DNA of 64,000 nucleotides, taken from assembly GCA_946410665.1 (NCBI GenBank), contig CAMKBC010000002.1, positions 11,926 to 75,925 of the forward strand, written 5' to 3'. The translations under genes and the position numbers were made by a program. The stretch comes from an uncultured Clostridia bacterium. GTDB lineage: Bacteria; Bacillota; Clostridia; TANB77; CAG-508. The number at the start of each line of letters is the position of its first letter. Positions within the stretch are counted from its first letter, which is position 1. Below are positions 2,394 through 52,345 of the stretch, in pieces. The notes under the pieces were generated by a model that was not told the DNA's origin, did not search any database, and saw only the letters and a program-made list of their open reading frames with translations.

Positions 2394-2425
2394 TACTACA
2401 TGATTGTGTAAAATAATAAATTAAA

Positions 2426-2458
2426 AAGGAAATAGAAAAATCTATTTCCTTTTTTTTA
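2426..2458 (+). terminator. Rho-independent terminator
   Basis: The stem ggaaatag/ctatttcc has a 6-nt loop and is followed by T8. Confidence 0.6.
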
Positions 2459-2679
2459 CATTTTTTAACATATAAAATTGGTAATTGTTTTACATGACGC
2501 AGCATTACGAACTCAAGGGGTTGAAGGATATTTTTGATGCAAGTTTTTAGTGAAGAAAAATAAAATGTAATGTAATAATACTAAAAATTACCATATATAT
2601 TATTTATTATATACGCGTGAGAAAAGTTTTATAGATTTCTTAAAAAAATCTAAATTTTAAACAAAAGAAGGAAAAGAAA

Positions 2680-4095: not shown

Positions 4096-4162
4096 GTACG
4101 AAAGATAAAAATGCAACATGTAAAGCACAAAGAAAAAAATTGAGAGAAACGGATGATAAAAA

Positions 4163-12585: not shown

Positions 12586-13287
12586 ATGATGAAAACAAAG
12601 CGAGAAAAAAATAAAAAATCTAAGAGATTTATATCGTTTATATTCATCATCTTATTACTCACGACAATAGTCGTAGCGGCGATTTTTATAGGTGATAATA
12701 TGAATATAGTGGGACTAAATAAAGAAGCCTCAGATTATCTAGAAGAACTAGAAAGATTGAACGTAAGTTTAGATGATGAAGATAATAATAGTATTAATAC
12801 TCTCGAAATAAACGCTTCTGCGGAGGCAAATGAGATTGTTGAAGAAAAGGAATCTCCACGAGGAATAGCCTCAGAAAGTAGAGTATACAAAGGCTATACA
12901 GTAGCGGGAAAGATTGAAATGCCTTCAGTAAATTTAAGATACCCAGTATTAGATACAATGACTAATGCAAATGCACTTGAGGTTTCAGTATGTATTCAAT
13001 ATGGAGTACCATTAAATACTGTAGGAAACACAGTCATCATAGGTCACAATTATAAAAATGGATTGTTCTTTGGAAGCAACAAGAACATGAAAAACGGAGA
13101 TCAAATTCACATTACAAACTATGCAACAGGTGTAAAAAAGACATACAGTATTTACAGCATTTATCAAACAGAAGAATCTGATACATCTTTTTACAACCGT
13201 GACACGGGTGGAAAGAGCGAGATTACATTAATAACCTGTCAAAACAATAATAAATACAGATTAGTAATTAAAGCTAAAGAAATATAA
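12586..13287 (+). CDS. Sortase (233 aa). Its size and the NPQTN-like substrates nearby suggest class B.
   Basis: A basic N-terminal stretch precedes a TM anchor. Catalytic His sits in VIIGHNY, catalytic Cys in ITLITCQ, and the conserved Arg in YRLV. Confidence 0.85.
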   Translation: MMKTKREKNKKSKRFISFIFIILLLTTIVVAAIFIGDNMNIVGLNKEASDYLEELERLNVSLDDEDNNSINTLEINASAEANEIVEEKESPRGIASESRVYKGYTVAGKIEMPSVNLRYPVLDTMTNANALEVSVCIQYGVPLNTVGNTVIIGHNYKNGLFFGSNKNMKNGDQIHITNYATGVKKTYSIYSIYQTEESDTSFYNRDTGGKSEITLITCQNNNKYRLVIKAKEI

Positions 13288-14953: not shown

Positions 14954-14960
14954 AAAGGGA

Positions 14961-23499: not shown

Positions 23500-23591
23500 T
23501 GTACTAAAACAAATAGATGTAATGAGCGCAAACACTACGAAAATAAGGCGTAGAGCATTGTTTTTGTTGATAAAAAACAAAAAGGTTAATA

Positions 23592-23683
23592 ACTGTAACA
23601 TAAAAATTCTCAAAAAAGCCCTAATATATCTATATATTAGAAGCATCAAAAATATTAAGAAATATTTTCAAAGGAGAAGTTTT
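23592..23683 (+). promoter_or_regulatory. Conserved promoter/leader block, copy A, shared with 35353..35430
   Basis: tgtaacaNaaaaNttctcaaaaaa ... (c/g)tatatta(g/t)a(a/g)gcatc.aaa..tattttcaaaggagaa is conserved upstream of both giant genes. Confidence 0.5.
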
Positions 23684-35229: not shown

Positions 35230-35265
35230 GGAGGGAGATAGAGATAATCTATCTCCTCTTTTTTA
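35230..35265 (+). terminator. Rho-independent terminator
   Basis: The stem ggagatag/ctatctcc has a 7-nt loop and is followed by tcttttttat. Confidence 0.65.
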
Positions 35266-35430: not shown

Positions 35431-35479
35431 CTATGATGTGAAAATATTCATATCAAGCAAAAGAAAAAAGGAGAAAACA

Positions 35480-38400
35480 ATGAAAACACTTAAACTTAAA
35501 AAAGTAATAACAATAGTTACAATGTTTTTATTAGCAATTGCTCTAATAATAGTTGGAGAAACTAAGAGAGTTGAACTATCAGAGATTACAAAACAAAAAT
35601 ATCTTGATAACAACAATCAAACAAAAATCACATGGGGTGATTTAACTGGAAATGGCTATGATGCAACAGCATACAATACTGGCTGGAACGATGCTAGTAC
35701 AGGTATGGTGTTTAATGGCACGAGCTCATATGCCCAAATCAAAGAAGTTAACTTAGAGCAGTTCACTTTAGAAGTTGCATTTAGAGCTTCTAACTTATCA
35801 AAAGAAGGAGAACAAACTTTATTAGCAAACTTCCAAGAAGGTGGATATGGTTTATTAATCAGAGATAAAAGATTAATAGGTCAAGCATATTTAGACGGAG
35901 AATGGAAAACTATTTCAACAGAAGATGGTGAAGGAACAGTTAGTGATGTTTTAGAAGAAAATATCATGTATGTTGCTCATCTTACTTTTGATGGAACAAA
36001 TCTATCTTTGTATCTAGATGGTGAGTTAATTGGAACTGTAACAGGTACGACATTAACATATCCAAAGAATAATACAATCATGATGCTTGGTGAAAATCCA
36101 GACGGAACAAATGCTGTAGAAGATAAATACTTAGAAGGAACAATTCATGAAGCAAAGATTTATAGTAAGAGTTTAAGTGATAATGAAATAGAAAACAATT
36201 TAGAAATTGTTGAACGTGTATATGCAGATGGTGTAAGTGGAAGATTAAACAACATCGAAGGCTATGTTCAAGATGGATTATTAATGGATCTTGAAGGTAG
36301 AAAAATCGAACGTACACAAGAAAGAATTGCAGATTTAAGTTTAAGAACATTCATAACAAAAATAAATGGTGAAGAATTATCAACATCTAGAGAACCAAAT
36401 GTGGAAATCGTAGATGGAAAATTTAATTACAAACATTCAAAGAATAAAGTTAATGTTGTAAAAGGTGATGTTATAACATACAAAATCAGAGTTTACAACG
36501 AAGGTAAAGAAGCAGCAAATGCAGAGAAGGTTGGAATTTATTTACCTGAAGAAATGAAGGTAATCGGATTAGATGATAGCGAGAGTGTAAATTCAAAATA
36601 CTTATGGACACAAGATGAAGGAAACGTATTCATCACAAAATATTTATCAAACCAAGAAATTAAAAAGAATGGTGTTAAGGTAATTGAAAACAGAAGTATA
36701 CCAGCGTATTCAGAAAATGCAGGAATACAATACAAGGACATTGAATTAGAAATATTAGTAAACGAAGATATAACAATTGCCGATGGTTACAGATTAGTTG
36801 TTGTAGCAGAGATTATGAAAGAGAGTCAAAATGATAGTGACTCAACACCACGTAATTTCAACATGACACAAGCAGATATTAAAACATACAAAAAAGCAGA
36901 AGCAGAACAATCATCAGCAGAAAGCTACATTGCTGGAAAAGAAGATGATGACGATTTTGAAAATGTATATGTAAATAAAACATACGATGCAAAAATTGAG
37001 TTAAACAAAATCAGTATAGCTAACGAAAAAAATATTGGTGGCGGAAAAATTAAGATTACAAACAATGTTTCTGACAGTGATATTAGATTAAAAATTTATA
37101 ATAAAGCAACAATGTCAGAATTAGAAAAAGACGAAAATGGATATGTTGTTCCACCACAAGAAGGTGTATTAATCGGACTTTCAAGATTACAAAAGAATGT
37201 TGAAAATGAAATTTTAATCGAAGAAGAATCTGCAGCAGAAGGATATGTAAAAGTAATTGATAGCACAAAATTAAAAGTTAAGATAAATGCAAATGAAGAA
37301 ATTGAAGCTATCATTACAAGTGTTGTAGAAAAGAAAATTAAAGAAGACGGAACTGTTGAGACACAAGAGTTATCAGGTTCAATCGAAAAAGATGCATTCT
37401 TAAGAGACGAAGATCAAAATGGCTTAGTTACAAAAGATGGAATCGCAACAGGTCAAAGAGTTGAATACAAGATTGGTGAAGATGGCGAATGGAAGAGATA
37501 CACAGGATCATTCAAACTACAAACAAATAAAACAATTTATGCAAGAAGTACAGACGGAACAAATTACAGTGGTACAGCAATCAAAGTTGTAGATAACATT
37601 GATAAGATTGCACCAACAATAGATACAATTGCAGACAAAGAAGAAACACTAGATATTGAAACTTCAATTGAATTCCATGTTACAGATACAAGCACAGAAG
37701 ATTATGGTGCTTCAGGAGTTTCTAAATTTGGAATCAGCGAAAACGATGTTGATGAACCAGAAGAATGGTTAGATGCGGACAAGACAACAGACTTTACAGG
37801 AACAGTAGAGCATATTGAAGATGAAGGTACATTCAGAATTTGGGTAAAAGACGTTGCAGGAAACATTGCAATCTCAAATGAATTTAGAATTGATTTACCA
37901 GATATCTCAGTTGCAAAAATTACAGCAATTGTAGATAGAGATGGAAATGAAATCACAAGTTTAATTAATACAGAGTACTACACATTAGAATCATGTTTCG
38001 CAACAATACCAGAAGGTGCTACTGCAACTGTTCAAGTAATTCATAGAATTTACAACGAAGCAAATGTTCTTGATGGAAACAAAACAGTAACACTAGATTT
38101 AAACGGATACACAATTGGAAACAGAAGCAGAAGAGAACCAACATTCACAATCGGAAGTGAAAACTCAGATGCAAGTTTAACAGTTATAAACAACAAAGGT
38201 AGGGGTGGTGTTTCTAGTAACAACACAGAAGCTATAGTTATAAATGACGGAAGCATCTTCACATTGGGCGAAGATAACAAGAGAGTTGTACAAAGCCAAC
38301 CAAAGATTACAGGTAAGACAACAGGTATCGATGTAAAGAATGGTGGTGTGTTTAATTTCTATGATGGAAACATCACAGCTGAAAAAGCTATTTATGGAAA

Positions 38401-41400
38401 TGTAAGTTCAACACCAATTGGATACAATGCATTCATCGAAGATTCAACAACAGATGAATTACAAACAGCAACATTACAAGTTATATCAAACGTTGAAGCA
38501 AGAATCGGTAGAAAGATGTACACATTACTAGAAGATGCTATCGCTGATTGCCAAACAAAATATGGAACAGATGGTTCACAAGTAGAAGTTGTTTTATTAA
38601 AGAACATTGCTAAAGATATGACAATCGAGATTGCAGAGAATCAAAATATCAAATTAGATTTAAACGGACATGATTTTACAACAGTAACAAATGGATACGT
38701 AGTTGATAATAAAGGTAAGTTTGAATTATTTGATAGTTCTGTAATGACAGGAAGTTATGATTATAAAGTTGAAGCTGAGGATACATCAAGAGTATCAAGA
38801 AATGGTGGAAGCAATATTTCTACAAATGGATTCACAGGTGTACAAAAATACAAAGAATTAGCTTTCAATTTCGACATTGAAGAATATGGTACATACATGT
38901 TCTCTATATCAGGTATTTACATGAGTAGAGAATCAGATATCTATTTAGATGATAGCGATACAAGTATGTACAACTTTGCAGAAAGAACATATGGTGCAGA
39001 GTACACAACAGTAAATGTTATATTAGATAACCTAGATCCAGGAACACATAGACTAAGAGTTGTTAACAATGCAGAAGGTGGAGAACAACCAATCATTGAC
39101 TACTTCGAAGTAAGTAACAACAAAGGATCAGGAAGAATTTATAGTACAACAAATCACGTAATTCACAACTGGAATTTTGATGAGAGAGTAACAGACATCA
39201 GCAAAATTGATACAGTTGATTATGAAGAATTAATTACAGATGAAAAAGTAAGTATACACAATGCTTATAGACATTCAAGAACATGGACAGATGATTTAAG
39301 TGTATATAGAGATGAAGACAATTCAATTGCATTAAATGAAACAACATGTGAAGATTGGTCAGCAGGATACATTGAAATTGATTTAACAGATAAAGAAGTA
39401 AAACCATATTTAATTCAATTTGACTATCATGCAAAATCAACTGGAAATAGAAGATTAGATATGTACTTCTCAGCTTATGAATTTGGTGCATATGATAGAG
39501 AAGGTAGAATTCTTTATAGAGATGGCGGAAATTTTGATCTTAATGAAACTTATAAGGCATATGTAACTGGTGGATCTAAACACTATATTCATTTAGCAAT
39601 GTATAAGAATAGATATTGCAATAACGAATTTGATTTTAGAGTAAAAAGCATTAAATTAGTTGAGGTTAATGATTTCAACATGGCGCAAATGACAATCACA
39701 TCAGGAATTATCGACACACAAAAAACAGGTACATATGAAGAAAGAACAGGTGGTATCTTTAATGAAGGTAACCTTATTGTAAAAGGTGGTAGATTTACAA
39801 CAGCACTTCAAACAGGAGACGATGGTAGAAAATGCGGTATTAGAAACTATGGCTTTGTAACAATACAAGATGCTCAGTTTGATGGAATGATTCATGGTAT
39901 CTATAATGGATGGTACAACAATTCAAAGTACGGAGTAATGACGCCAATAGTAAAAATAAATAATGTTAATATGAATTGTACTCATATAAATTATATGGGA
40001 GCTGGCCACTCAATTGCCGAAATCAAGAAGGGTAAATTTAATTCTAAATCTTCGTATGAAGTATGGCAAAACTACGAAGATTCAACTGTTATTATTAATC
40101 CTGAATCAGATGAAGATGTTCAATTTATGAATGGTGGCGACTGGGAAATCTATATGAGTAGAGATAACGGAAAGCAACTTTATATTAAAGGTGGAACATT
40201 CAGACATGCTGGAGGCATTATTTATTCATATGATGATTACTGGAGAGGTTCACAAAGATGGATGTATAACCAAATAACTATTGATGGCGGAGATTTTCAA
40301 TCAACTTCAGGTGAAATGATAGCAACATCTTACAGTGCAAAGATCATTGTTAACGGAGGAAAATTTGTAACATCAGGAGATAGAATATTTAGAATAAACA
40401 ACTTCATGGATGTTACAATTAATGATGGTGAATTCTATGCTACAAGAGGAACTGGTAATATTCTTTACTGTGATTATTATGACAACAGCTACAGTAAATT
40501 AACAATTAATGGAGGTTATTTCACTAACGTAACAGAAGCAAATAATAGCTATTGGACATTATTCCAATTCTATTATGGAGCACATGTAACAATTAATGGT
40601 GGCGAGTTACATGCTGGTAGTACAGTATTCCATGAAAACAGAGGCAATCTAGACTTAAAGATTTTAGGTGGAAACATAACATCAAATGTTGGACCACTAA
40701 CAAATACAGATAATCATGATGGTGGATGCAGTGTTGTAATTGGAACTAAAGATGGTAATGTAGAAATGCAACCAGAAATTAAAGTTTCTACTTCATATCC
40801 GTTAGTTACAAATAACAATGCAACAGTAAAATTCTATGATGGTGTGTTGTATGCACAAAAGAATCCATTCTTAAATTGTAATCTAGAAGAAATTGAAGAC
40901 AACACAAATGTTGTTTCAGAAGATTACGGAGAAAGAGGATTAAAGGTTTGGCTAGGAGATAATTCTTCACAAGAGAATGTAGAAATATATGAATGTCCAG
41001 ACAATCAAAGTTTAGTTGGAACAAAGTATTCAACAATTCAAAAAGCATTAGATCAATGCAGTACAGATGCAGGAGATAATGTAACAAAGATTAGATTATT
41101 AAAAGATTATTCTAATTTTGAAATTAACACGATTAAAAAAGGACAAAATGTAATTATCGATCAGGATGCATATATTTTATGGAATTATAGAAACAACGGA
41201 TTTGATAACTATGGAAAAGTAGAATTTATAAATACACAAAATAATTTATATAGTAGAGAAATAAAAAACACAGAATTAGTAAGCAATCACATATATCCAG
41301 AGAGAGATTACAATTTCACAGACTATAGAATTATAAAAGATAAGAGCGGAAGAAATAATGATTTAGAGTTGTTATGCGCAGGAAAAGATGCTGATACAAA

Positions 41401-44400: not shown

Positions 44401-47400
44401 TAGTATATTAGCACAACTTCCAATCATTGAAATTGTTGGTGTTGGTGAATATACAAATCTAAGAGATTTCCAAACAGCAGTAGACGGATTAGAAACAACA
44501 GAAGAAGTTGATGGTGAAACTATTACAAGGGAGTATAAAATCAACTTATTACAAAATATTTCTATGGATGCTTCAGAAGAAGGACTTACATTTAAGGAAG
44601 GATTAAAAGCAACTTTTGATATCAAGGGATATAGATTTACATCAGCTAACAAAGATGTAATAACAAATAATGGAGATATGACATTTATAGATAGTGTTGG
44701 AACAGGTGAATACTATAACAATTCAAACGGATCATATTTCATAAACAATGGAAAAATGAAAGTATCAAATGCTATAGTAAGAGTCCTTGGAGCTGGAAAT
44801 AGTGGTAATTGGAAAAAGATATTTAACAACATTGGTGATCTAGAATTTGACACAATTAATTTCACAAGTTCAGGTGGAAGTTATACTCATATGATCTATG
44901 ACGAAGGAGAAGGTACTTTTAAAGATACAAATTCTAAGATTATAGGAACATCTTCATTAGGAGAAACAGATAGAGAAAGAATTTATAACAATGCGACAGG
45001 AGATATGGAATTTAACGGAACAACAATGAGTTATATTTCATATATCCAAAACGTGAAAACAGGAAACATGACATTCAACGATATATATCAAGACAATGGA
45101 TGGGAAATAGTAAATCATAACGTAGGAAATATTACATATAATGGTACATCAAAGTCTTATACAACATATGGAATAAGAGCTGAAGGTGGAGCTGGAACTA
45201 GCACAATCACAATTAATGATGAAACATTAATAAGCGGTTATTATAGAGCATTTACAAACGACACAACAGCACAATTTATCATGAATGGTGGTTCTATTGA
45301 AACAAGATATAGCTATAGTCCTGAAACAATTAGACAAACAGGAAATGGTTTAATTCAAATTAATGGTGGTACGGTAGTAAACCACGTTAAGAGAATATAC
45401 GCTGGTAAATTTGTTGTTGATGGTGAAACGGCAGTAGTAAATGGTGAATACATTTACTTAAATAATACAGGTGGAATGTATGGTACATTTGAATTACGAA
45501 ATGGTAATGTAAATTGTAGAATACAATCACAAGTAGATAATGCAACTATCAATATTTTAGGTGGAAATCTAAATTGTGATGCTGCTTCGTGGTCAATAGA
45601 TGCCGGTAGTTATAAAACAAATATTACTATTGGAACTAAAGACGGAGAAGTAACAAATTCACCACATATTAGAGGATATATCTGGTCATACTATTATTCA
45701 AACACATGTTACTATGATGGAACAATTACTGTATCAAATTCAGCTGATTATTTAAGTACAGAAGTCGGTTTCTATGGATTAGTAAATGAATTTGAAGAAG
45801 GATATACACCAGAAAAGAATGTAAATAGTGAACATGAAGATTGGTACGACATTACATTAGTAGAACAAAAAGAAATAGCAGAAGTAGATGGCGTGAAATA
45901 TGATGATTTACAAGAGGCAATCGATGCATGTACAACATCAGGAAAAACAATCAAAATGTTAAAAGATTACATTGAAGTAAAAACATATACAGTACCAAGT
46001 GGCATTGATGAAGAAAGTGAAGAAGAGCAAGAACTTAAGAAGATTACACTTGACTTAAATGGACATATTATTGCACCAATCGGAAGAGATTGGGGTGGAG
46101 ATGAACTTTCAAGAGAGTTCTTACATAACTATGGTGATTTAACAATCACAGACAGCGTTGAAGCGGAAGAAGATGAAAATGGTGACCGATTAGTAAAGAA
46201 TAAACGTGGAAAGATTCATGGATATGCGCAAGGATATATAGACAACTATGGTAACTTGAAGTTTGATTCATCAAAGATGATGTTTAAAGCTCAAGCTTGG
46301 ACAAACACAATAAGGAATTACAATGATGGAAATGTTTCTTTTGATAATTTCTATATGTATGACAGAGCATTACCAGATGGAAGTCCACAACACAGAGTTG
46401 TATATAACTATAGTACAGGAAAAATTGAATTAAATGATTCAATAATTGATTTTTATGGTGAATATGTATGGCGTCGAGGTGAATCACAACAATACTTTGT
46501 TTACAACACATCAAACAATTCAGAGCAACATACAGAGTATAATATTAACAATTCAGTAATCAATGCATTAGGAAGTTCATCATATTACTTTGTATTAGAT
46601 GATGCTAATGGACAAATGGATACTGAAATTCATGATTCAAAACTAGTTTCATTTAATAATATTAAGAAAGAATTAAAAATATATGATTCAAGCATAAATG
46701 GATACATGTATGCAAATAATTATGAAGCTGAAATATTATTAAAGAACGTAAGACAAAACAGATATATTAATTGTCAAAATGCATGGTTCACAATAGAAGA
46801 TTGTAATTTAGGAACAGATAACGATTGGAATTACACTTACTTCTATGGAAAAGTAAGAAGCATTAAGAATTCTAATTTCTCAACTAATACTAGTGAAGGA
46901 GCTCACATATATGGCACTGATGGCGCTGGCGTTATTGAAAATTCAAGATTCTACAGATTTAAAACATATAATGGATCAAACCTAGAATTAAAAGATGTAA
47001 CAATTCAGGATTATATTGAAAATGGTGCATCAAATCACCAAAATTGTAGAATAACAATTAATGGTGGTACATACGACAAGATTTATAGTAATACATTAAA
47101 CGATGTAATTACTTTAAACTCAGGAAACTTTAGATATATAGAAAATAGAGCAAATTCTAAACTATATATTTATGGTGGTAACTATAACAACACATCAGGC
47201 GAATGTGTAAACAATGCAGGTATATTCACATTAGGTGCTGATGATGGAGAAGTAAGTATCGAAGAACCAGCAATAACAGGTTCAACATATGGTGTAACAA
47301 ACACAGGAACATTCAATTTCTATGATGGTATTATCCAAGGTGGTAACAAAGCCATCAATGGTAGTGTAACAGCAAAACCTGTAAGTTATAGAGTAAGCTA

Positions 47401-50400
47401 CTTACAAAATAATACAGTAGCAATCTTAGACTATGTAACACAAGTTGAAAATGCAGTTACAATGAATGGCGTTTACTACAACACATTAGATGCAGCAATT
47501 AAAGTTGCTCCATCAAATCAAGAAATCTATTTATATATTAATAATGAGATTGGATTAACAGATACATTTGTAATACCAGAAGATAAAAACATTGTAATCA
47601 ACTTACAAGGAAACAGTATTACATATTCAAGTACAGAACCAGCAATCATAAATAACGGAATACTAAGAATTTATGATTACTTTGAGAATGAAGAGGGAAT
47701 ACATGAAACAACCTATGGTGCAGTAAGAAACGACAGAGGTTTAGCAATTGACAACAGAGGAACATTAACATTAGGTGAAAACGACGGAACAGTCGATACA
47801 ACAACTCCAAGCGTTGTAGGTTTGGGCGAAGCACTAAGAAATTCTGGCACATTCGCATTCTACGATGGTAGATGTGTTGTATTAGATAACAATGGAAATG
47901 AAACCGTTACAGTTGCAGATGAATCTGTACAAACTGCAGATGTTAAAGAATTATCAACACTAAGAAAATTGGGTGATAATACTCAAATTTCTATAGACGA
48001 TGAAGGAAGAGTAATCAGTAGATTATCAAGTCCTGAAATCGCAGTTACTCCATCTTATTGGACAAATCAAGATGTCGAAGTAACAATGAATGCAACAGAT
48101 AGAGTAATAATGAATATTGGTGATAGACAACAAGGTATGGACTTAAGCTTAAAGCAATATGTAAGCAAAGTTGGAAATACAGCAATAGATAGAAAACCAG
48201 TAATAACAGAAGAAACAGAACAAGCAATACTAAGAACACAAAATGGTGTATATGGAAGATCAGAAGACGAAGTTTACGCAAATGTAGAAGATGGCGACGA
48301 TGAAGTAACATATACTATTAGCATTTATAATGAAGGAACAGAAACTGGATATGCAGCTGAAATTATCGAATTCATTCCAGAAAACTTAGAGTTTGTTTCA
48401 GATAATGAAGTAAACATAGCAAATGGATGGGAAGTTGCAAGTACAGATTCTACAACAGGTAGAGTAACAGCAGTTAAGACAAACAACTTAGCTAATGTTG
48501 CAGCGCTAGCTGATTTAGATGGTGATAGCATAATGAAATTACTAAGAGGCGAAATCGAAACAGTACCAAGTGTAGATTTAGTATTAAAAGTACATGTAAC
48601 ACCAACAAGAGAAAAAGTATATCATACAGTAAATGGAGAAATTACAGCTGCAAAAGATAGCAGTGGTAATACATATGGAGCATATTTCACAGAAGGAAAC
48701 GGAGTAAATAGCGACTTAGACTCAACTCCTGCAAACTATCCAGCAAAATCAGAAGATGATAATGATGGAGATACATTCTACACATTAATGAAGAAAGGTA
48801 AAGTAAATATTAAATATGTAGATCAAAAAACAAATCAAGAGATTTCTGATTCAACAGTAATCGAAGGATTTGAAGGAGACCCATACAATGCTTTATCATA
48901 CGGCAAGATAATTGAAAACTATAGATTAATGAGAGAACCAGAAGAACCAACAGGAACATTTACAAAGGATACACAAGAAAAAGTATTCTACTATGCACAC
49001 ATTTCAGCAGGTGTCGTAGTAAATCATATTGATGTAAATACAGATAGAGTAATCAAAACAGAAACTCTAACAGGTATTGAAGATCAAGATTATACAACTT
49101 CAAGTGAAGAATTCGAAGGATATGACTTAGTAGAATCAAGATTACCAGATGCAAATATAGCAAACGGTAAAATGACAATTGACGCAATTACAGTAAATTA
49201 CTACTATGAGAGACAAACAACTGTAAGGGTTAAACATTTAGATAAATACTTAACAGGCGACAATGCAAAATTATGCGATGATATCGTAATCGAAGGTCAT
49301 GAAAAAGATGAATATACAACAGAAGCAAAAACATTTGATGGTTATAAATTAGATGAAACATCTTTACCACAAAACGCTTCTGGAACAATGGAAGTTGTTG
49401 ATAGAGGAAACGGAAACGTTCAAACAGAAACAACAGTAATCTATTATTATATATCAGAATCAGAAGGTGTAGATATCTTATACAAAGATACATATTCAGA
49501 TAAAGAGATCGCTGAAAAGACATCTATAACTGGATATGAAGGAGATCAATACACATCAGAAGCTAAGACATTTATGCTATATGATTTAGATGAAAGTAGA
49601 TTACCAACTAATGCATCAGGAACACTTGGAAAAGACAAGAAAACAGTTACATATTATTACAAACATGCAGCAAGCATAAGAGTAGAATATGTAGACAAGA
49701 ATGCAAATACAAAGATTGTGGATGACGATATAATTGAAGGTCATGAAAACGACGTAAAAGAAGTTAGACCAAAAGATATCGATGATTATGTATTAGATTC
49801 TGAAAGTCAAAAAGACGACTACAACGTAACAATGGTTGTTACAAGAGATGCAGACAAAAATGTTATATCATTTACAACTGTAGTAACATTCTACTATAAC
49901 AAAGTTTCTGCAGGTGTAATAGAGAAACACATTGATATTTATGATGATACACTAATGGAAGAACCAACAGTACATGAAGGAAGCGAAGGACAATACTATA
50001 AGATTAATCCAAAGACATTTGCAGGATTTGATCTAGTAGAAACAAGCTTACCAGATAATGCAGAAGGCCATATGTCAGTATCAGCAATAGAGGTTAAATA
50101 TTATTATGCAAGAAAGACTCAATTAATAATCAAACATATTGATGTTCAAACAAATACAGAAATACCAAATTCAAGAATAACAATTAACAATCACAGAAAA
50201 GATAACTATACAACCTCAGGAAAAGCTATAGCAGGATACAAATTACAAGAAGATAGATTACCAGATAATGCTTCAGGAGTAATGGAAATCACAGAAAATG
50301 AAGGTAATATTGATATAACTACAACAGTTACATACTACTATGAATCAACAAGTTCAGCAGGTGTAACAGTACACTTCAGAGACATTAAGACTAACAAAGA

Positions 50401-52345
50401 TATTAAGGTTAATGGAGAAACAACTACATATGTAATTAGGGGCGAAAGATATCAAACTTACGAAACAACTCCAAAAGAAATCGAAGGCTATACATTAGTA
50501 AGTACAGTTGAAGAAGAAATTGAAGTTGATGGCGAGACAATTACTCACCAAGTAAGTAAATTACCTGCAAATGCAAACGGACAATTATTAGAAGAAGCAC
50601 AAGATGTAATTTATTACTATATAAAACAAGCAACTGTAAAAGTTGAATACTATGATACTGCTACAGATGAAAAGATTGATGAAGATACAACATTAAATGG
50701 CGTTGAAGGTGAGAATTATACAACATCTCCAAAAGCTATAACAGGATTTGTAGTTGATGAAGATAAAACACCAACAAACGCAAATGGAGTTTATAAAGTA
50801 GAAAGAGATGAAAACTTTGAACCAACAAACACAGAAGTAATTGTTAAATACTATTACAAGGCAATCTCTAAAGGTGTAGTAGTACATCATATTGATGATA
50901 AGCACGATACAATTCTAGAAACAGAAACTCTAGAAGGTATTGAAGGCGATAATTACGAAACAGCAAGTAAGACATTCGAAGGATTTGATTTAGTTGAAAC
51001 AAAATTACCTACAAACAAGAATGGTAAGTTTGCGAAAGAATCAATAACAGTAAATTACTATTATGTACGAAAAACAAAAGTTATTGCAAGCTATATCGAT
51101 ATAGAAGGTGGAAAACTAGCTGAAGACGTAATTATAGAAAATCACGAAGGTGATGAGTATGAGACAGAAGCTAAGACATTCACAAATTACAAATTAGTAG
51201 AAACACCAGAAAATCATAAAGGAACAACTAAGGTTAAAGTTAACGAGGATGATTCAATTGATGTAGTTACACATGTAACTTATGAATATGAATCAACAGT
51301 TAGTGCAGGATTAGTTGTACATCATAAAGACTTAAAGACAAAAACAGAGTTAAAGACTGACACTTATAATGGTGAAAGACACTCTATTGTTAAGATAAGT
51401 TCTAAAGATATTCCATTGTATGATTTAGCTAGATCAGAGCTTGTAGATGGTAAAGAGGTAAGTCTATTACCAGAAAGCGAAGATATAGAACTACTAAAAG
51501 ATTTACAAGAAGTTACATACTACTATAGAAGAAAAGCTAAGGTAATTGTAGAATACAGAGACACATTAACAAATGAAACAGTAATGGAAACAGAAACAAT
51601 AGAAGGACACGAAGATGAGAATTACGAAGTATCTGCAAAAGATATTAAAGGTTATGTGTTAGATCAAAAGAGATTACCAAGCAATACAAAAGGAACAATG
51701 AAAGTAAATGGAACAGAAGACACAACAATTGTTACATTCTACTATAAATTGATTCCAGCAGATGTTATTGAAAGATATGTTGATATCAATACACAAAAAG
51801 TTATTGAAGAAGTGGTACATAAAGGCGAGTTTGGTGAAGAGTACACAATTACTCCAAAAACAATACCTGGATTCACATTAATGACAAAAGATAAAGACGG
51901 AAATGATATTGTTCAAACAGCTAAAGGTAAATACACAACAACAAAGATTGAGATTGTTTACTATGTAGCACTAAATACTACAGTAAGAGTTCAATATATT
52001 AACTTAATAACAGACGAAAAGATGTCAGATGATCTTGTAATTAGAGGCTATGAAGGAAAAGAATACACAACAAGTCCTGATGAATTCGAAGGATACGAAT
52101 TAACAAACGATCCTGAAGAAGCACATGGAAGAATGAAAGCTGAAGAAATAGTTGTTAAATATTACTATGCTAAGAAACTAGATGGATTATTACCTCAAAC
52201 AAATGAAACAAACACAAAACAAATGGTATTAATTGCAATTCCAATCATAGTATTAGTTAACCTAGCTTTAGGTGTAAAAGCATTCAAGAGAACTAAAAAA
52301 GAAGAAGCAAAAGTAGAGAATGTAAAACAAACCGAAAGTAAATAA
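35480..52345 (+). CDS. Giant sortase-anchored adhesin (about 5621 aa): signal anchor, LamG, DUF11, beta-helix-like repeats, LamG x2, more beta-helix-like repeats, DUF11, about 15 MucBP repeats, LPQTNE sorting signal
   Basis: The ATG at 35480 has RBS aaaaggag. The ORF track's GTG at 35438 is a possible alternative start. LamG/ConA-like domains show the F.G.......L...(F/T).(E/L)..F...........L......GGYGL..........W........Y.....DG....LY..G pattern. Beta-helix-like units are INGG.F/ILGGN. DUF11 signatures are DSDSTPRN...KEDDDDF and DLDSTPAN...SEDDNDGD. Confidence 0.85.
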   Translation: MKTLKLKKVITIVTMFLLAIALIIVGETKRVELSEITKQKYLDNNNQTKITWGDLTGNGYDATAYNTGWNDASTGMVFNGTSSYAQIKEVNLEQFTLEVAFRASNLSKEGEQTLLANFQEGGYGLLIRDKRLIGQAYLDGEWKTISTEDGEGTVSDVLEENIMYVAHLTFDGTNLSLYLDGELIGTVTGTTLTYPKNNTIMMLGENPDGTNAVEDKYLEGTIHEAKIYSKSLSDNEIENNLEIVERVYADGVSGRLNNIEGYVQDGLLMDLEGRKIERTQERIADLSLRTFITKINGEELSTSREPNVEIVDGKFNYKHSKNKVNVVKGDVITYKIRVYNEGKEAANAEKVGIYLPEEMKVIGLDDSESVNSKYLWTQDEGNVFITKYLSNQEIKKNGVKVIENRSIPAYSENAGIQYKDIELEILVNEDITIADGYRLVVVAEIMKESQNDSDSTPRNFNMTQADIKTYKKAEAEQSSAESYIAGKEDDDDFENVYVNKTYDAKIELNKISIANEKNIGGGKIKITNNVSDSDIRLKIYNKATMSELEKDENGYVVPPQEGVLIGLSRLQKNVENEILIEEESAAEGYVKVIDSTKLKVKINANEEIEAIITSVVEKKIKEDGTVETQELSGSIEKDAFLRDEDQNGLVTKDGIATGQRVEYKIGEDGEWKRYTGSFKLQTNKTIYARSTDGTNYSGTAIKVVDNIDKIAPTIDTIADKEETLDIETSIEFHVTDTSTEDYGASGVSKFGISENDVDEPEEWLDADKTTDFTGTVEHIEDEGTFRIWVKDVAGNIAISNEFRIDLPDISVAKITAIVDRDGNEITSLINTEYYTLESCFATIPEGATATVQVIHRIYNEANVLDGNKTVTLDLNGYTIGNRSRREPTFTIGSENSDASLTVINNKGRGGVSSNNTEAIVINDGSIFTLGEDNKRVVQSQPKITGKTTGIDVKNGGVFNFYDGNITAEKAIYGNVSSTPIGYNAFIEDSTTDELQTATLQVISNVEARIGRKMYTLLEDAIADCQTKYGTDGSQVEVVLLKNIAKDMTIEIAENQNIKLDLNGHDFTTVTNGYVVDNKGKFELFDSSVMTGSYDYKVEAEDTSRVSRNGGSNISTNGFTGVQKYKELAFNFDIEEYGTYMFSISGIYMSRESDIYLDDSDTSMYNFAERTYGAEYTTVNVILDNLDPGTHRLRVVNNAEGGEQPIIDYFEVSNNKGSGRIYSTTNHVIHNWNFDERVTDISKIDTVDYEELITDEKVSIHNAYRHSRTWTDDLSVYRDEDNSIALNETTCEDWSAGYIEIDLTDKEVKPYLIQFDYHAKSTGNRRLDMYFSAYEFGAYDREGRILYRDGGNFDLNETYKAYVTGGSKHYIHLAMYKNRYCNNEFDFRVKSIKLVEVNDFNMAQMTITSGIIDTQKTGTYEERTGGIFNEGNLIVKGGRFTTALQTGDDGRKCGIRNYGFVTIQDAQFDGMIHGIYNGWYNNSKYGVMTPIVKINNVNMNCTHINYMGAGHSIAEIKKGKFNSKSSYEVWQNYEDSTVIINPESDEDVQFMNGGDWEIYMSRDNGKQLYIKGGTFRHAGGIIYSYDDYWRGSQRWMYNQITIDGGDFQSTSGEMIATSYSAKIIVNGGKFVTSGDRIFRINNFMDVTINDGEFYATRGTGNILYCDYYDNSYSKLTINGGYFTNVTEANNSYWTLFQFYYGAHVTINGGELHAGSTVFHENRGNLDLKILGGNITSNVGPLTNTDNHDGGCSVVIGTKDGNVEMQPEIKVSTSYPLVTNNNATVKFYDGVLYAQKNPFLNCNLEEIEDNTNVVSEDYGERGLKVWLGDNSSQENVEIYECPDNQSLVGTKYSTIQKALDQCSTDAGDNVTKIRLLKDYSNFEINTIKKGQNVIIDQDAYILWNYRNNGFDNYGKVEFINTQNNLYSREIKNTELVSNHIYPERDYNFTDYRIIKDKSGRNNDLELLCAGKDADTNGIACNTYTTGVIRNWNITDAEQKAMEIVLKTTTRENTCIFMSPNGQHMAFGVWNNTFLLSCKSNNNQTFVIPDDFYDGTMKDIVINYNSETNQYTVYYNGRKLETRGSGNWWGNGNSYGAFFGRRPNQDNFHGTVFALRQYSENLTEEQIATNYESAQEKYVDGEDEDNYTTDNLILDIDSSTIDWEKVALASHNVNNYTTNSWGYQKIDLRDQAGRFLITVNAETRISNISGRTSWAHARILTDTSIRGESDTTGRFIHVTGDTTATDYTYEVEGGKIYYLHYGFYHNSQALETFTINSIKVTTIQQGKIFSRNCNLLKNGRLVEEESWKDLSGNNRHGVLVGPVWDDDNRGLVFDGNDYVRIAQMNYRQFTFESTFELSSIHNGWNTVMSNYHSGGWGLSVNGSDKKLYARAYINGDYRNIPLEIPIEVNTKYTAGIMYDGHMMYLYVNGMVVNTWKSTDYDTYKHWPDSSTYVVLGGDAAGSGADGEWLNGKVYSARGYSRKLTDLEIAQNYQKDRALYYGDDAEYIENITGYVEKDRILDFEGRHHADSLDNSMYAKLGANLYIEERGLKNRDVIKNAGTLDIDTYKFIVDGRNTKTIRNDNDGIVNIYGWDYDSTSYENTVVFDNHRRGTINYYDGNTEATTSESSIIFNNLNNSTANIYDGIIRKNGRYVMNQNGGYSTMNIYGGTITCEGRWDGETRILYNYENGTLNISGGIINYYATSNYSTRYGIDNINSAEFHITGGKINWQSTYCNYSRVIRNASPKHSSIENYEIYARELNTSTDLIHFLNEGTNSEITIKNSKFWQDAHTTSWNNHAAIYNNASNAVVNVENFISDTIWIGINNPNGTVNVKNCNILNSVTGINISAGAVNCDGVNVESTTTGLNQTGGTLHVYGNSRITSTTNGANVTGGTFILGQEGANSEDENEPIVDINKPYIQGVNYGVNNTATFKFYDGRIKANDGKSITGNITAKEAGYQVKVIKYTEGESGNEIAKEDSILAQLPIIEIVGVGEYTNLRDFQTAVDGLETTEEVDGETITREYKINLLQNISMDASEEGLTFKEGLKATFDIKGYRFTSANKDVITNNGDMTFIDSVGTGEYYNNSNGSYFINNGKMKVSNAIVRVLGAGNSGNWKKIFNNIGDLEFDTINFTSSGGSYTHMIYDEGEGTFKDTNSKIIGTSSLGETDRERIYNNATGDMEFNGTTMSYISYIQNVKTGNMTFNDIYQDNGWEIVNHNVGNITYNGTSKSYTTYGIRAEGGAGTSTITINDETLISGYYRAFTNDTTAQFIMNGGSIETRYSYSPETIRQTGNGLIQINGGTVVNHVKRIYAGKFVVDGETAVVNGEYIYLNNTGGMYGTFELRNGNVNCRIQSQVDNATINILGGNLNCDAASWSIDAGSYKTNITIGTKDGEVTNSPHIRGYIWSYYYSNTCYYDGTITVSNSADYLSTEVGFYGLVNEFEEGYTPEKNVNSEHEDWYDITLVEQKEIAEVDGVKYDDLQEAIDACTTSGKTIKMLKDYIEVKTYTVPSGIDEESEEEQELKKITLDLNGHIIAPIGRDWGGDELSREFLHNYGDLTITDSVEAEEDENGDRLVKNKRGKIHGYAQGYIDNYGNLKFDSSKMMFKAQAWTNTIRNYNDGNVSFDNFYMYDRALPDGSPQHRVVYNYSTGKIELNDSIIDFYGEYVWRRGESQQYFVYNTSNNSEQHTEYNINNSVINALGSSSYYFVLDDANGQMDTEIHDSKLVSFNNIKKELKIYDSSINGYMYANNYEAEILLKNVRQNRYINCQNAWFTIEDCNLGTDNDWNYTYFYGKVRSIKNSNFSTNTSEGAHIYGTDGAGVIENSRFYRFKTYNGSNLELKDVTIQDYIENGASNHQNCRITINGGTYDKIYSNTLNDVITLNSGNFRYIENRANSKLYIYGGNYNNTSGECVNNAGIFTLGADDGEVSIEEPAITGSTYGVTNTGTFNFYDGIIQGGNKAINGSVTAKPVSYRVSYLQNNTVAILDYVTQVENAVTMNGVYYNTLDAAIKVAPSNQEIYLYINNEIGLTDTFVIPEDKNIVINLQGNSITYSSTEPAIINNGILRIYDYFENEEGIHETTYGAVRNDRGLAIDNRGTLTLGENDGTVDTTTPSVVGLGEALRNSGTFAFYDGRCVVLDNNGNETVTVADESVQTADVKELSTLRKLGDNTQISIDDEGRVISRLSSPEIAVTPSYWTNQDVEVTMNATDRVIMNIGDRQQGMDLSLKQYVSKVGNTAIDRKPVITEETEQAILRTQNGVYGRSEDEVYANVEDGDDEVTYTISIYNEGTETGYAAEIIEFIPENLEFVSDNEVNIANGWEVASTDSTTGRVTAVKTNNLANVAALADLDGDSIMKLLRGEIETVPSVDLVLKVHVTPTREKVYHTVNGEITAAKDSSGNTYGAYFTEGNGVNSDLDSTPANYPAKSEDDNDGDTFYTLMKKGKVNIKYVDQKTNQEISDSTVIEGFEGDPYNALSYGKIIENYRLMREPEEPTGTFTKDTQEKVFYYAHISAGVVVNHIDVNTDRVIKTETLTGIEDQDYTTSSEEFEGYDLVESRLPDANIANGKMTIDAITVNYYYERQTTVRVKHLDKYLTGDNAKLCDDIVIEGHEKDEYTTEAKTFDGYKLDETSLPQNASGTMEVVDRGNGNVQTETTVIYYYISESEGVDILYKDTYSDKEIAEKTSITGYEGDQYTSEAKTFMLYDLDESRLPTNASGTLGKDKKTVTYYYKHAASIRVEYVDKNANTKIVDDDIIEGHENDVKEVRPKDIDDYVLDSESQKDDYNVTMVVTRDADKNVISFTTVVTFYYNKVSAGVIEKHIDIYDDTLMEEPTVHEGSEGQYYKINPKTFAGFDLVETSLPDNAEGHMSVSAIEVKYYYARKTQLIIKHIDVQTNTEIPNSRITINNHRKDNYTTSGKAIAGYKLQEDRLPDNASGVMEITENEGNIDITTTVTYYYESTSSAGVTVHFRDIKTNKDIKVNGETTTYVIRGERYQTYETTPKEIEGYTLVSTVEEEIEVDGETITHQVSKLPANANGQLLEEAQDVIYYYIKQATVKVEYYDTATDEKIDEDTTLNGVEGENYTTSPKAITGFVVDEDKTPTNANGVYKVERDENFEPTNTEVIVKYYYKAISKGVVVHHIDDKHDTILETETLEGIEGDNYETASKTFEGFDLVETKLPTNKNGKFAKESITVNYYYVRKTKVIASYIDIEGGKLAEDVIIENHEGDEYETEAKTFTNYKLVETPENHKGTTKVKVNEDDSIDVVTHVTYEYESTVSAGLVVHHKDLKTKTELKTDTYNGERHSIVKISSKDIPLYDLARSELVDGKEVSLLPESEDIELLKDLQEVTYYYRRKAKVIVEYRDTLTNETVMETETIEGHEDENYEVSAKDIKGYVLDQKRLPSNTKGTMKVNGTEDTTIVTFYYKLIPADVIERYVDINTQKVIEEVVHKGEFGEEYTITPKTIPGFTLMTKDKDGNDIVQTAKGKYTTTKIEIVYYVALNTTVRVQYINLITDEKMSDDLVIRGYEGKEYTTSPDEFEGYELTNDPEEAHGRMKAEEIVVKYYYAKKLDGLLPQTNETNTKQMVLIAIPIIVLVNLALGVKAFKRTKKEEAKVENVKQTESK
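35630..36215 (+). other. LamG/concanavalin-A-like lectin domain 1
   Basis: LTGNGYDATAYNTGWNDASTGMVFNGTSSYAQIKEV...FTLEVAFRASN...TLLANFQEGGYGLLI...YLDGEWKTI...YVAHLTFDGTNLSLYLDGELIGT...LGENPDG...LEGTIHEAKIYSKSLSDNEIENN. Confidence 0.7.
41343..41875 (+). other. LamG/concanavalin-A-like lectin domain 2
   Basis: SGRNNDLELLCAGKDAD...AMEIVLKTTTRENTCIFMSPNGQHMAFGVWNNTFLLS...YDGTMKDIVINYNSETNQYTVYYNGRKLETRG...FFGRRPNQDNFHGTVFALRQYSENLTEEQIATNY. Confidence 0.65.
42395..42950 (+). other. LamG/concanavalin-A-like lectin domain 3
   Basis: LSGNNRHGVLVGPVWDDDNRGLVFDGNDYVRIAQMNYRQFTFESTFEL....NTVMSNYHSGGWGLSVNGSDKKLYARAYINGDYRNIPLEIPIEVNTKYTAGIMYDGHMMYLYVNGMVVNTW...LGGDAAG...WLNGKVYSARGYSRKLTDLEIAQNY. Confidence 0.7.
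48793..52185 (+). repeat. MucBP-like repeat array (about 15 tandem units of 65-85 aa)
   Basis: Each unit starts at a V.V.(Y/H)(I/V)D block, contains I(E/T)G.EG(D/E).Y.T......GY(K/D)L.E..LP.NA.G, and ends in (V/I).YYY. The last two units are about 70% identical to the last two MucBP units of the 3842-aa protein. Confidence 0.75.
52201..52218 (+). other. Sortase sorting-signal motif LPQTNE, followed by a hydrophobic segment and a basic tail
   Basis: tta cct caa aca aat gaa encodes LPQTNE, followed by ...MVLIAIPIIVLVNLALGVKAFKRTKK. Confidence 0.7.

Follow-up and report, generated by a model that had tools for sequence, protein, structure and literature searches.

What does a protein of 5,621 amino acids do for the bacterium that makes it, and is the gene that encodes it intact? 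The question arises from a 64,000-nucleotide stretch of DNA (hereafter, the window) in which this giant gene lies among genes for other giant surface proteins. Giant sortase-anchored adhesins decide where gut Firmicutes attach, be it mucus, food particles, or other microbes. We consider it probable that the product of the gene is a giant fibrillar adhesin anchored by a sortase. The bacterium is an uncultured gut Firmicute of low GC content that probably forms spores, and its lineage has been seen in several metagenomes. With a sortase anchor, 15 MucBP units, six beta-helix modules, and several lectin-like domains, the protein would be a large but ordinary bacterial adhesin, and the current understanding of adhesins is unchanged by these findings.

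An intact gene and its variation between strains

The reading frame contained no internal stop codons. Its longest form in the ORF listing starts at a GTG (35438..52345; 5,635 aa); the ATG at 35480 yields MKTLKLKK followed by a hydrophobic segment, and public gene calls agree on the length of 5,621 aa. The terminator-like hairpin upstream (Table 1) suggests that the giant gene is transcribed as a unit of its own; 2 terminator-like sites were observed versus 0.0 expected in shuffles, and no consensus sigma-70 site was found upstream of the gene on the + strand. The first-pass annotation had ranked the frame as one of the largest bacterial ORFs, which was overstated: 8 of the 143 best family representatives, most of them contig-truncated, were at least 5,000 aa long (up to 6,386 aa), and bacterial proteins as long as 85,804 aa have been described (bioRxiv 10.1101/2023.11.21.568195).

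In a public collection, the identical protein and two cluster mates of 5,621 and 5,614 aa, all of them full-length, were encoded on three different contigs (79, 25, and 297 kb); the ORF is unsplit in other assemblies. The nucleotide sequence was 98.4% identical, without gaps over 13 kb, to that of an independent assembly (called product, 5,621 aa) and 99.7% identical to a fourth contig from another sample, which spans only the 3' 2,932 codons. Synonymous codon differences between strains outnumbered nonsynonymous ones 3 to 1 (141 versus 47). These data bear on the reading of the gene as an assembly artefact, a chimeric ORF, or a decaying pseudogene resulting from repeat collapse in metagenome assembly, in favor of which stand the metagenomic origin of the genome, the 15-unit repeat array within the gene, and the short fragments that were its nearest relatives in the first protein searches. 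The MucBP units are, moreover, too divergent to collapse, because comparison with the neighboring MucBP protein gave only HSPs of less than 45% identity. The artefact reading is effectively refuted; the ORF is real, intact, and conserved, and the gene is under selection.

Identity to the 5,614-aa orthologue differed along the protein, amounting to 98.6% in the MucBP array, 99 to 100% in modules 1 and 6, 85.6% in the jelly roll, 76.5% in the body of module 3, and approximately 89% in the other module bodies. This pattern is consistent with an exposed, variable surface that is predicted to bind ligands, and the concentration of between-strain variation in the helix bodies would mark where ligand, immune, or phage pressure acts.

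Table 1. Features of the giant gene, its predicted product, and its surroundings (coordinates in the window; aa, residues of the 5,621-aa protein)
Feature	Residues (aa)	Position	Strand	Basis
Sortase gene		12586..13287	+	Pfam Sortase, 69.6 bits
Terminator-like hairpin and T-run		35233..35257	+	3' of upstream 3,896-aa gene; 10-bp stem
Ribosome-binding site AAGGAG		35468..35473	+	6 nt 5' of ATG 35480; direct sequence reading
Giant gene, complete coding sequence	1-5621	35480..52345	+	ATG to stop; 5,621 aa + stop
Putative N-terminal signal or anchor peptide	1-27	35480..35560	+	MKTLKLKK + hydrophobic stretch
LamG1 (Laminin_G_3)	79-237	35714..36190	+	55.8 bits, E 7.6e-15
DUF11-like and SpaA/prealbumin-like Ig-type domains	285-634	36332..37381	+	Sequence similarity
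Module 1 (minimal, ~190 aa)	810-1000	37907..38479	+	C-cap FNFYDG at aa 960
Module 2	1005-1830	38492..40969	+	Model 1; C-cap KFYDG at aa 1785
Two predicted jelly-roll (CBM or galactose-binding-like) domains	1095-1400	38762..39679	+	Inserted in module 2
Module 3	1840-2975	40997..44404	+	Caps placed by phmmer versus homologues and itself; C-cap KFYDG at aa 2930
LamG2 (Laminin_G_3)	2006-2125 (whole domain ~1935-2135)	41495..41854	+	34.7 bits, E 2.4e-8
Third accessory domain, putatively jelly-roll-like	2167-2296	41978..42367	+	Between LamG2 and LamG3
LamG3 (Laminin_G_3)	2331-2486	42470..42937	+	35.5 bits, E 1.3e-8
Module 4	2985-3455	44432..45844	+	C-cap variant CYYDG at ~aa 3410; model 2 residues 1-480
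Module 5	3465-3985	45872..47434	+	Model 2; C-cap FNFYDG at aa 3947
Module 6 (minimal)	3990-4145	47447..47914	+	C-cap FAFYDG at aa 4127
DUF11 no. 2	4272-4342 (whole domain ~4265-4435)	48293..48505	+	26.1 bits
MucBP array, 15 units	4440-5566	48797..52177	+	Pfam E 4e-117, 13 stretches; 15 end motifs
Predicted cell-wall sorting signal, LPQTN	5571-5575 (LPQTN)	52190..52297	+	LPQTN, hydrophobic segment, KRTKKEE

Architecture of the predicted protein

At the N terminus, the basic n-region and hydrophobic h-region of a putative Sec signal peptide were visible on direct reading of the sequence. The three LamG domains of the first-pass annotation (35630-36215, 41343-41875, and 42395-42950) were borne out, with each Pfam match falling within its interval and all exceeding the gathering score of Laminin_G_3 (PF13385; 27.6 bits), LamG2 only when its segment was scanned alone (no match within a 700-aa piece). 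Common to all three was the motif G.v...R.Ys..Lt..EI..NY at the C-terminal end. In searches of PDB sequences, LamG1 had a weak match (4qvs, an S-layer domain protein), the best match of LamG2 reached an E value of 0.2, and LamG3 was without match. No sequence relatives of LamG2 beyond its orthologues were found; two LamG copies similar to LamG3 (E 1e-21) were present in homologue P0014. The Ig-type segment that follows LamG1 was 35.6% identical over 360 aa to aa 526-844 of the neighboring 2,768-aa protein, of which aa 728-825 are a Pfam SpaA match; the first DUF11 copy in this segment (aa 322-377) scored 19 bits, below the gathering score (PF01345; 24.6 bits).

The middle of the protein (aa ~810-4145) had been described as two long beta-helix-like repeat regions. 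The beta-helix folds were recovered in structural models, and the two uniform tracts gave way to six capped modules with jelly-roll inserts. Each module has an N-cap helix (Y.TL..AI and LDLNG) and a C-cap (TLG...P.I.G...F.FYDG); the C-caps, that of module 2 included, were mutually but weakly similar in a phmmer comparison of the protein with itself, and a BLASTP self-comparison detected no repeats other than those of MucBP. The motif h.h.[GN]G occurred 15 times in aa 806-4170 versus 2.1 times in composition shuffles (maximum, 7 of 500). Hydrophobic autocorrelation gave no fixed rung period above that of shuffles, and the middle therefore does not consist of tandem repeats in the strict sense. 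Pfam matched nothing besides LamG in aa 830-4170, NCBIfam nothing in the beta-helix region, and module profiles no PDB sequence.

AlphaFold2 models were obtained for aa 805-1835 (model 1; pLDDT 74.5) and aa 2980-4170 (model 2; pLDDT 69.8). Both were all-beta with one short helix per N-cap, and between them they displayed beta-helix as well as jelly-roll folds. At this medium confidence, and with the inserts poorly resolved, the models show a right-handed beta-helix fold in the middle region. The top 50 Foldseek matches of model 2 in the PDB were all right-handed beta-helices, with weak E values (best, 0.02), and included the adhesins Hap, Ag43, Awp1, and Lactobacillus reuteri SRRP; the top structural matches also took in enzymes (PL6 and GH55). 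The general fold is all that ties the beta-helices to pectate lyases. In BFVD, model 1 matched a right-handed beta-helix phage protein (E 1.6e-5, 971 columns) and a tailspike (7.5e-5).

Module 1 (model 1, residues 1-200) had short regular strands at pLDDT ~85-94, and its junction unit was the most recurrent element among homologues; module 6 (model 2, residues 1010-1165; pLDDT ~80-94) resembled modules 1 and 5. In module 4, a helix at residues 15-23 was followed by regular short strands (pLDDT ~60-90), this module being predicted from a single sequence because all alignment rows were stacked on modules 5 and 6. Module 3 has LamG2 and LamG3 within it and would consist of an N-cap (aa 1846-1925), a nested insert of ~570 aa, and a body (aa 2500-2930), a geometry that rests on sequence collinearity, since the models cover aa 805-1835 and 2980-4170: the homologues L001, from water-deer rectum Clostridia, and P0003 are collinear across this region and are without LamG2 or LamG3. 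Relatives of the segment aa 1835-2990 numbered just 2 to 4.

In module 2, the inserts are predicted to lie between the N-cap (aa 1005-1094) and the body (aa 1401-1790). Tandem jelly rolls (GH2 accessory, malectin-like ANXUR, and CBM22 tandem domains) were the top Foldseek PDB matches of model 1 (E 4e-5 to 1e-3), and a CenC-like CBM was matched in BFVD (E 2e-6), the inserts themselves having low pLDDT (30-77). CBM_35 scored below threshold at aa 1124-1196 (16.7 bits versus a gathering score of 28; E 0.009). The resemblance of the modeled inserts to CBM6/CBM35-type domains is one of fold only (tandem CBM or malectin-like). Among homologues, zero to two jelly-roll copies were present at the same site. 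The third accessory domain was similar to P0003 aa 1435-1563 (phmmer E 1.7e-18) and P0016 (E 1.5e-18) and weakly similar to the second insert of module 2, from which a jelly-roll fold may be expected for it.

A second DUF11 domain was indeed followed by a MucBP array, as the first-pass annotation had stated, with about 15 units: 15 by count of the V.YYY-type end motif and 13 by stretches in one Pfam scan (PF06458; 383.5 bits versus a gathering score of 23 bits). The array was similar to the MucBP region of InlJ (NCBIfam) and to Ruminococcus bromii Amy12 (PDB 9qfa; E 1e-6). MucBP is also found in R. bromii pullulanases such as the surface enzyme Amy12 (PMC12663171), so that the name MucBP is no proof of mucin binding. 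The array may serve as a stalk, since the wall-proximal position is occupied by Cna_B domains in L001 and L004, both of them collinear homologues.

The terminal LPQTN motif is noncanonical relative to LPXTG, Asn replacing Gly, and its position and context fit a sorting signal: it is followed by the hydrophobic segment MVLIAIPIIVLVNLALGV and the positively charged tail KAFKRTKKEE. The C terminus of the neighboring 3,896-aa protein is paralogous (LPQTS, a hydrophobic segment, and KKNKKE). A polymorphic toxin or contact-dependent effector was rejected, the C terminus being a predicted sorting signal and not a toxin domain. The sortase gene lies 22 kb upstream of the giant gene, among other giant surface proteins, and is likely to encode the anchoring enzyme for the locus; it scored 42.4 for NCBIfam sortase_fam (cut-off, 39.35) and below all class-specific cut-offs. 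Also encoded in the locus are three other proteins with MucBP, SpaA, LRR, or GLUG domains and a GT2-GH5 gene pair.

Adhesin, enzyme, or self-association factor

In the arrangement that we propose, the protein is predicted to be exported by Sec and joined to peptidoglycan via the LPQTN signal. A stalk formed by the 15 MucBP units next to the wall and by the DUF11 domain would keep the six right-handed beta-helix modules, capped in series and ~3,300 residues long in total, off the cell. Jelly-roll inserts would project laterally from these modules (two CBM-like domains in module 2; LamG2, a jelly roll, and LamG3 in module 3), and LamG1 with the Ig-like domains would form the tip. The likely ligands, bound multivalently, would be glycans from the mucus of the host, from the diet, or from other microbes. 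We infer this geometry and all ligand binding; that glycans are bound is suggested by the domain families by themselves. The earlier description of the protein as a fibre gains from the sortase-type C-terminal signal, the sortase gene in the locus, and the homologues in which Cna_B stalk arrays replace MucBP.

No catalytic Pfam or NCBIfam family was matched at any threshold tried, and the module profiles matched no PDB sequence, both of which argue against a cell-surface carbohydrate-active enzyme, in which at least one beta-helix module would be a polysaccharide lyase or glycosidase belonging to the pectate-lyase-like superfamily, with LamG and CBM-like domains to target the substrate and with MucBP as a spacer, on the pattern of R. 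bromii amylosome enzymes. In the PDB, model 2 was closest in fold to PL6 alginate lyases and GH55 glucanases, as such an enzyme would predict, but with E values of at least 0.02 and with adhesin beta-helices ranking among the same matches. Insertion of CBM-like jelly rolls in the helix, the MucBP of the surface pullulanase Amy12 (PMC12663171), and the GT2-GH5 gene pair at the same locus would likewise fit an enzyme. However, the nearly invariant columns of alignment A1 were Gly, Pro, Asp, Tyr, Ala, Ile, and Asn; except for G414, these columns lay in the cap junction (aa 909-1077), with zero in the helix body. The bodies were, unlike catalytic cores, the most strain-variable parts (76 to 89%), and an arrangement of six modules in tandem is a typical feature of repeats in stalks or adhesins. 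We regard a carbohydrate-active enzyme as quite unlikely. A factor for self-association or coaggregation, in which the beta-helices would mediate cell-cell contact or biofilm formation in the way of Ag43-type beta-helices, or protein-protein attachment to other microbes or particles, and not glycan recognition, seems to us less likely still. It accords with the presence of Ag43, a "bacterial self-associating protein" (4kh3), and Hap among the fold matches of model 2, with several other giant surface proteins in the locus, and with the link of SRRP beta-solenoids to biofilm formation (PMC9210967). Both being adhesin roles, this explanation overlaps the adhesin proposed here, and the ligand alone differs. 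Carbohydrate binding is the role mostly associated with the families of the three LamG and three CBM-like jelly-roll domains, which speaks against self-association.

A bolder reading than that of an ordinary adhesin, and on balance an unlikely one, is that the capped "FYDG" module represents an undescribed, very widespread domain family that serves gut Firmicutes as a modular display scaffold, with a fixed insertion site after the N-cap for none to three lectin-type domains and with rapidly diversifying helix bodies; alternatively, some modules would be a new polysaccharide-lyase or hydrolase family. If the display scaffold were true, the modules would constitute a programmable, hypervariable glycan-recognition system and not an inert stalk.

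Homologues and known systems

The capped-module family comprises ~4,300 representative clusters, mostly of 2,000 to 6,000 aa, and has no Pfam or NCBIfam model. The module accounts for ~60% of the giant protein, and with a definition of it, thousands of giant proteins now called "hypothetical" would gain an annotation. In a genome scan, relatives of at most 34% identity were found in Clostridia and Bacilli MAGs from deer, rabbit, human, and sheep gut. Pfam-less giant homologues from gut and rumen MAGs contain the same module, in as many as 18 copies per protein, with the N-cap Y.TL..AI...LDLNG and the C-cap TLG..P.I.G..F.FYDG. Over aa 490-1920 and 2680-4417 of the giant protein, L001 (at least 4,688 aa) aligns collinearly at 30 to 35% identity; unlike the giant protein, L001 and L004 (Hadza gut Clostridia; 5,778 aa) have Cna_B arrays (7 and 15 copies, respectively), no MucBP, and no LamG. 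Domain shuffling is evident in the locus: one helix cassette is joined to a MucBP stalk or to a Cna_B stalk, and LamG or CBM-like inserts may or may not be nested in it.

The layout of the giant protein, with 15 MucBP units and DUF11 near the predicted anchor and a putative adhesive lectin-like and beta-helix region distal to them, is that of fibrillar adhesins as defined by Monzon and Bateman (PMC8286594, PMC9210967), and beta-solenoid N-terminal regions have already been described in Firmicutes fibrillar adhesins (clusters 1, 10, and 12; PMC9210967). Like those proteins and L. reuteri SRRP, it would be a Gram-positive wall-anchored gut protein with a right-handed beta-solenoid distal to a repetitive stalk. 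The SRRP binding region (PDB 5NY0 and 5NXK) was matched by model 2 at ranks 47 and 49 (Foldseek E ~3), and a profile search of PDB sequences detected no sequence similarity to it. In contrast to SRRP, the giant protein has no serine-rich repeats (Ser 6.1% overall; maximum, 13 per 100 aa), and no accessory Sec genes (SecA2/SecY2) were seen among the scanned ORFs of the window; in place of a single binding region it has six capped modules in tandem, and lectin-like domains are nested in the helix.

With the MucBP proteins (Listeria InlJ, Lactobacillus Mub-type proteins, and R. bromii Amy12), the giant protein shares a C-terminal MucBP array, which in its case lies beside a predicted wall anchor. 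Its match to the NCBIfam InlJ region had an E value of 1.4e-68, yet only 232 bits versus a cut-off of 1,700, and it therefore falls outside the InlJ family. The N-terminal part, LRR in InlJ and GH13 in Amy12, is neither in the giant protein, whose 15 units follow ~4,400 residues of unrelated domains.

The autotransporter passengers Hap (3syj), Ag43 (7ko9, 4kh3), and UpaB (6bea) have a similarly long right-handed beta-helix as an adhesive or self-associating stalk, a resemblance of fold class only because E values were 0.09 to 1.3. In contrast to these, the giant protein has no beta-barrel translocator, is predicted to be exported via the Gram-positive Sec and sortase route, and has its helix split into separately capped modules. 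Beta-helix domains are also used for attachment by gut and plant-biomass microbes, as in the adhesin-like proteins of gut methanogens and the tapirins of Caldicellulosiruptor. The tapirin C-domains (4wa0 and 6n2b) were matched by model 2 at ranks 46 and 48; these proteins belong to other lineages and have other anchors and sizes, and what they appear to share with the modeled giant protein is the fold.

An intact giant gene and its domains

The longest ORF in the window (35438-52345) opens with GTG and encodes 5,635 aa. An ATG at 35480, 6 nt 3' of AAGGAG, gives a translation of 5,621 aa that starts with MKTLKLKK and a hydrophobic stretch and contains no internal stops; a terminator-like hairpin (35233-35257) lies between this gene and the upstream one. 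A public protein collection contains the exact sequence (from a 79,477-bp contig), and two further copies share its 90% cluster, one of 5,621 aa (24,976-bp contig) and one of 5,614 aa (297,130-bp contig). Over its 3' 9.9 kb, the gene in the public assembly ERZ14210018 aligned to the window without gaps (98.4% identity); another assembly, ERZ12289777, aligned at 99.7%. Codon differences (141 synonymous versus 47 non-synonymous) point to purifying selection. Given these copies, alignments and codon differences, the ORF is intact and conserved and is not split in other assemblies. Its description in the first-pass annotation as one of the largest bacterial ORFs was overstated, since relatives reach 6,386 aa and bacterial proteins as long as 85,804 aa have been described (bioRxiv 10.1101/2023.11.21.568195).

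All three LamG domains proposed in that annotation were recovered within their intervals as Laminin_G_3 matches (Pfam gathering score, 27.6 bits). The second DUF11 before the MucBP array was likewise found; the first copy is sub-threshold. Pfam placed MucBP in 13 stretches (383.5 bits in total), and counting by the end motif V.YYY gave 15 units, in line with the predicted number of about 15.

Features of the 5,621-aa protein and neighboring genes (identity is to the 5,614-aa orthologue)
Feature	Window	aa	Strand	Details	Identity
GLUG-motif ORF	99-2393		+	764 aa; TTG start, without signal peptide	
MucBP/SpaA protein	2680-4095		+	471 aa; ends ...ITVKTGHD, hydrophobic segment, KKR	
BspA-type LRR + SpaA protein	4163-12469		+	2,768 aa; sortase gene immediately 3'	
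Sortase gene	12586-13287		+		
Family 2 glycosyltransferase, then GH5 cellulase-family protein	13313-16286		+	Glyco_tranf_2_3, 546 aa; 441 aa; adjoins sortase	
Upstream giant surface protein	23522-35212		+	3,896 aa; SpaA x4, GLUG motif, MucBP x5	
5,621-aa protein	35480-52345		+		
LamG1		79-237		55.8 bits	92.3%
DUF11 copy 1		322-377		19 bits (threshold 24.6)	
DUF11-1 + SpaA-like					99.7%
Module 1				minimal, about 160-190 aa	99.0%
Module 2 N-cap					100%
Module 2 insert		1095-1400		about 300 aa; between N-cap and body	
Bodies of modules 2, 4, 5				400-500 aa	about 89%
Module 3 insert		1930-2500		about 570 aa; site equivalent to module 2 insert	
LamG2		2006-2125		34.7 bits, matched only when segment scanned alone	90.5%
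Jelly roll in module 3		2167-2296			85.6%
LamG3		2331-2486		35.5 bits	94.4%
Module 3 body	42965-44419	2496-2980		400-500 aa; comparison with P0204	76.5%
Module 6				minimal, about 160-190 aa	100%
DUF11 copy 2		4272-4342		26.1 bits (threshold 24.6)	
MucBP array		4440-5566		15 units	98.6%

Capped beta-helix modules

The Pfam-less middle of the protein (aa ~810-4145) had been read as two long beta-helix regions of INGG.F-type repeats. Such repeats do occur (15 h.h.[GN]G motifs in aa 806-4170 versus 2.1 in shuffles), with no fixed period found in that span. Judging from motif positions and phmmer self-comparison, the true unit is a capped module, present six times: C-caps with the pattern TLG...P.I.G...F.FYDG lie at aa ~960, 1785, 2930, 3410, 3947 and 4127, and each leads into the next module's N-cap (Y.TL..AI..., LDLNG). 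The supposed two regions thus correspond to the stretches flanking the insert in module 3, which carries LamG2, another jelly-roll-like domain and LamG3. Homologues have 0, 1 or 2 inserts at the module 2 site, and two collinear homologues (P0003 and L001, the latter from water-deer rectum Clostridia) span module 3 without LamG2 or LamG3.

The predicted folds agreed with the beta-helix and jelly-roll assignments. An AlphaFold2 model of aa 805-1835 (alignment of 14 rows) was all-beta (pLDDT, 74.5; pTM, 0.66), with local confidence of ~90 in module 1 and the junction, 70 to 90 in the module 2 body and 30 to 77 in the inserts. In Foldseek searches of the PDB the inserts resembled tandem jelly rolls (GH2 accessory domains, malectin-like ANXUR ectodomains and CBM22 tandems; E from 4e-5), and the model's matches in BFVD included a CenC-like CBM (E 2e-6), a crAss-like phage "Right handed beta helix domain-containing protein" (E 1.6e-5, 971 columns) and a tailspike (E 7.5e-5). 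A second model, of aa 2980-4170 (25 rows, stacked on modules 5-6 only; pLDDT, 69.8), was all-beta with one short helix per N-cap. Its best 50 PDB matches were all right-handed parallel beta-helix proteins, the best E being only 0.02, and included PL6 lyases, GH55, polygalacturonases and phage tailspikes as well as the adhesins Hap, Ag43, UpaB, Awp1, L. reuteri SRRP and tapirins.

A profile of aa 805-1835 matched 4,328 representative proteins at E <= 1e-3 among 1.84 billion (514 at E <= 1e-30), mostly of 2,000 to 6,000 aa and with up to 18 matched stretches per protein. At genome level, the protein's nearest relatives come from Clostridia and Bacilli MAGs (identity, <= 34%), with deer rectum, rabbit, Hadza human gut and sheep rumen as their sources. 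L001 (at least 4,688 aa) and the Hadza gut homologue L004 (5,778 aa) carry 7 and 15 Cna_B domains, respectively, in place of MucBP and are without LamG; the helix cassette is thus combined with differing stalks and inserts, and MucBP here sits in the stalk position. Word-indexed searches missed the protein's own cluster, of which its exact sequence is the representative; since the index misses even identical sequences for so giant and low-complexity-like a protein, its hit counts understate the family. What has wider value here is this capped beta-helix module, both unannotated and very abundant, together with its hot-spot for insertions.

Sorting signals and the surface-protein locus

The protein ends with LPQTN (aa 5571), an 18-residue hydrophobic segment and KAFKRTKKEE, an anchor-type signal paralogous to that of the 3,896-aa protein (LPQTS, hydrophobic segment, KKNKKE), and a sortase gene is present in the locus. 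The annotated N terminus of the 3,896-aa protein (MSANTTKIRRRALF...) is unlike a signal peptide, so its true start may be downstream. In the 2,768-aa protein, which shares 35.6% identity with the giant protein (aa 526-844 versus 285-634, respectively), no recognizable sorting motif was found; its tail is acidic and Thr/Glu/Lys/Asp-rich. L004 (714-18050) ends with LTVKTGS and a hydrophobic segment and, together with the end of the 471-aa protein, suggests that (I/L)TVKTG is a second sorting-motif type besides LPQT[NS], with two sortase specificities in these lineages.

The glycosyltransferase and GH5 genes look like a synthase paired with a glucanase, serving an exopolysaccharide that would be a beta-glucan or cellulose-like. 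Lying at the window edge, the 764-aa ORF may belong to a larger surface-protein gene as its tail, or may be a fragment of a pseudogene. The window (GC, ~31%) is chromosomal DNA from a low-GC Firmicute that probably forms spores, and the surface-protein genes stand among housekeeping genes (tatD, a SpoIIE-like gene, holB and PSP1/yaaT). All ORFs of at least 200 aa run in the + direction, and the GC skew stays positive across the window, its cumulative value rising monotonically, which with the tatD, holB and yaaT synteny fits a leading-strand, origin-proximal region into which surface-protein genes were inserted.

Proposed role and known systems

The protein is probably a sortase-anchored adhesin. 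After Sec export and sortase linkage to the cell wall, a stalk of MucBP and DUF11 would project the six beta-helix modules as a semi-rigid rod, with lectin-type domains displayed laterally and a tip of LamG1 and Ig-like domains at its end, allowing multivalent attachment to ligands that are most likely glycans.

Compared with the 5,614-aa orthologue, variation is concentrated in helix bodies and inserts, which fits exposed interaction surfaces; a 9-residue indel lies at aa 3009-3017. The mosaic (module 3 body at 76.5% versus 98.6 to 100% for MucBP and modules 1 and 6) suggests recombination or diversifying selection. This distribution argues against conserved catalytic cores and bears on the reading of the protein as a surface CAZyme, which we consider unlikely: no catalytic signature was found in the protein, and conserved residues sit in the caps while the helix bodies vary. 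Slightly less likely again is a factor for self-association or co-aggregation, which would still be an adhesin, differing in its ligand. That the gene is an artefact or pseudogene is scarcely credible, being refuted by the independent assemblies.

The adhesin reading can be set beside described systems. The protein is not an SRRP, since it has no serine-rich repeats, and InlJ family membership was rejected because its score of 232 bits fell far short of the 1,700 cut-off. The nearest described counterparts are the SRRP binding region of L. reuteri and, in Firmicutes fibrillar adhesins, the beta-solenoid regions (PMC9210967); also close are MucBP-array surface proteins, namely InlJ-like proteins and R. 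bromii Amy12 (PDB 9qfa).
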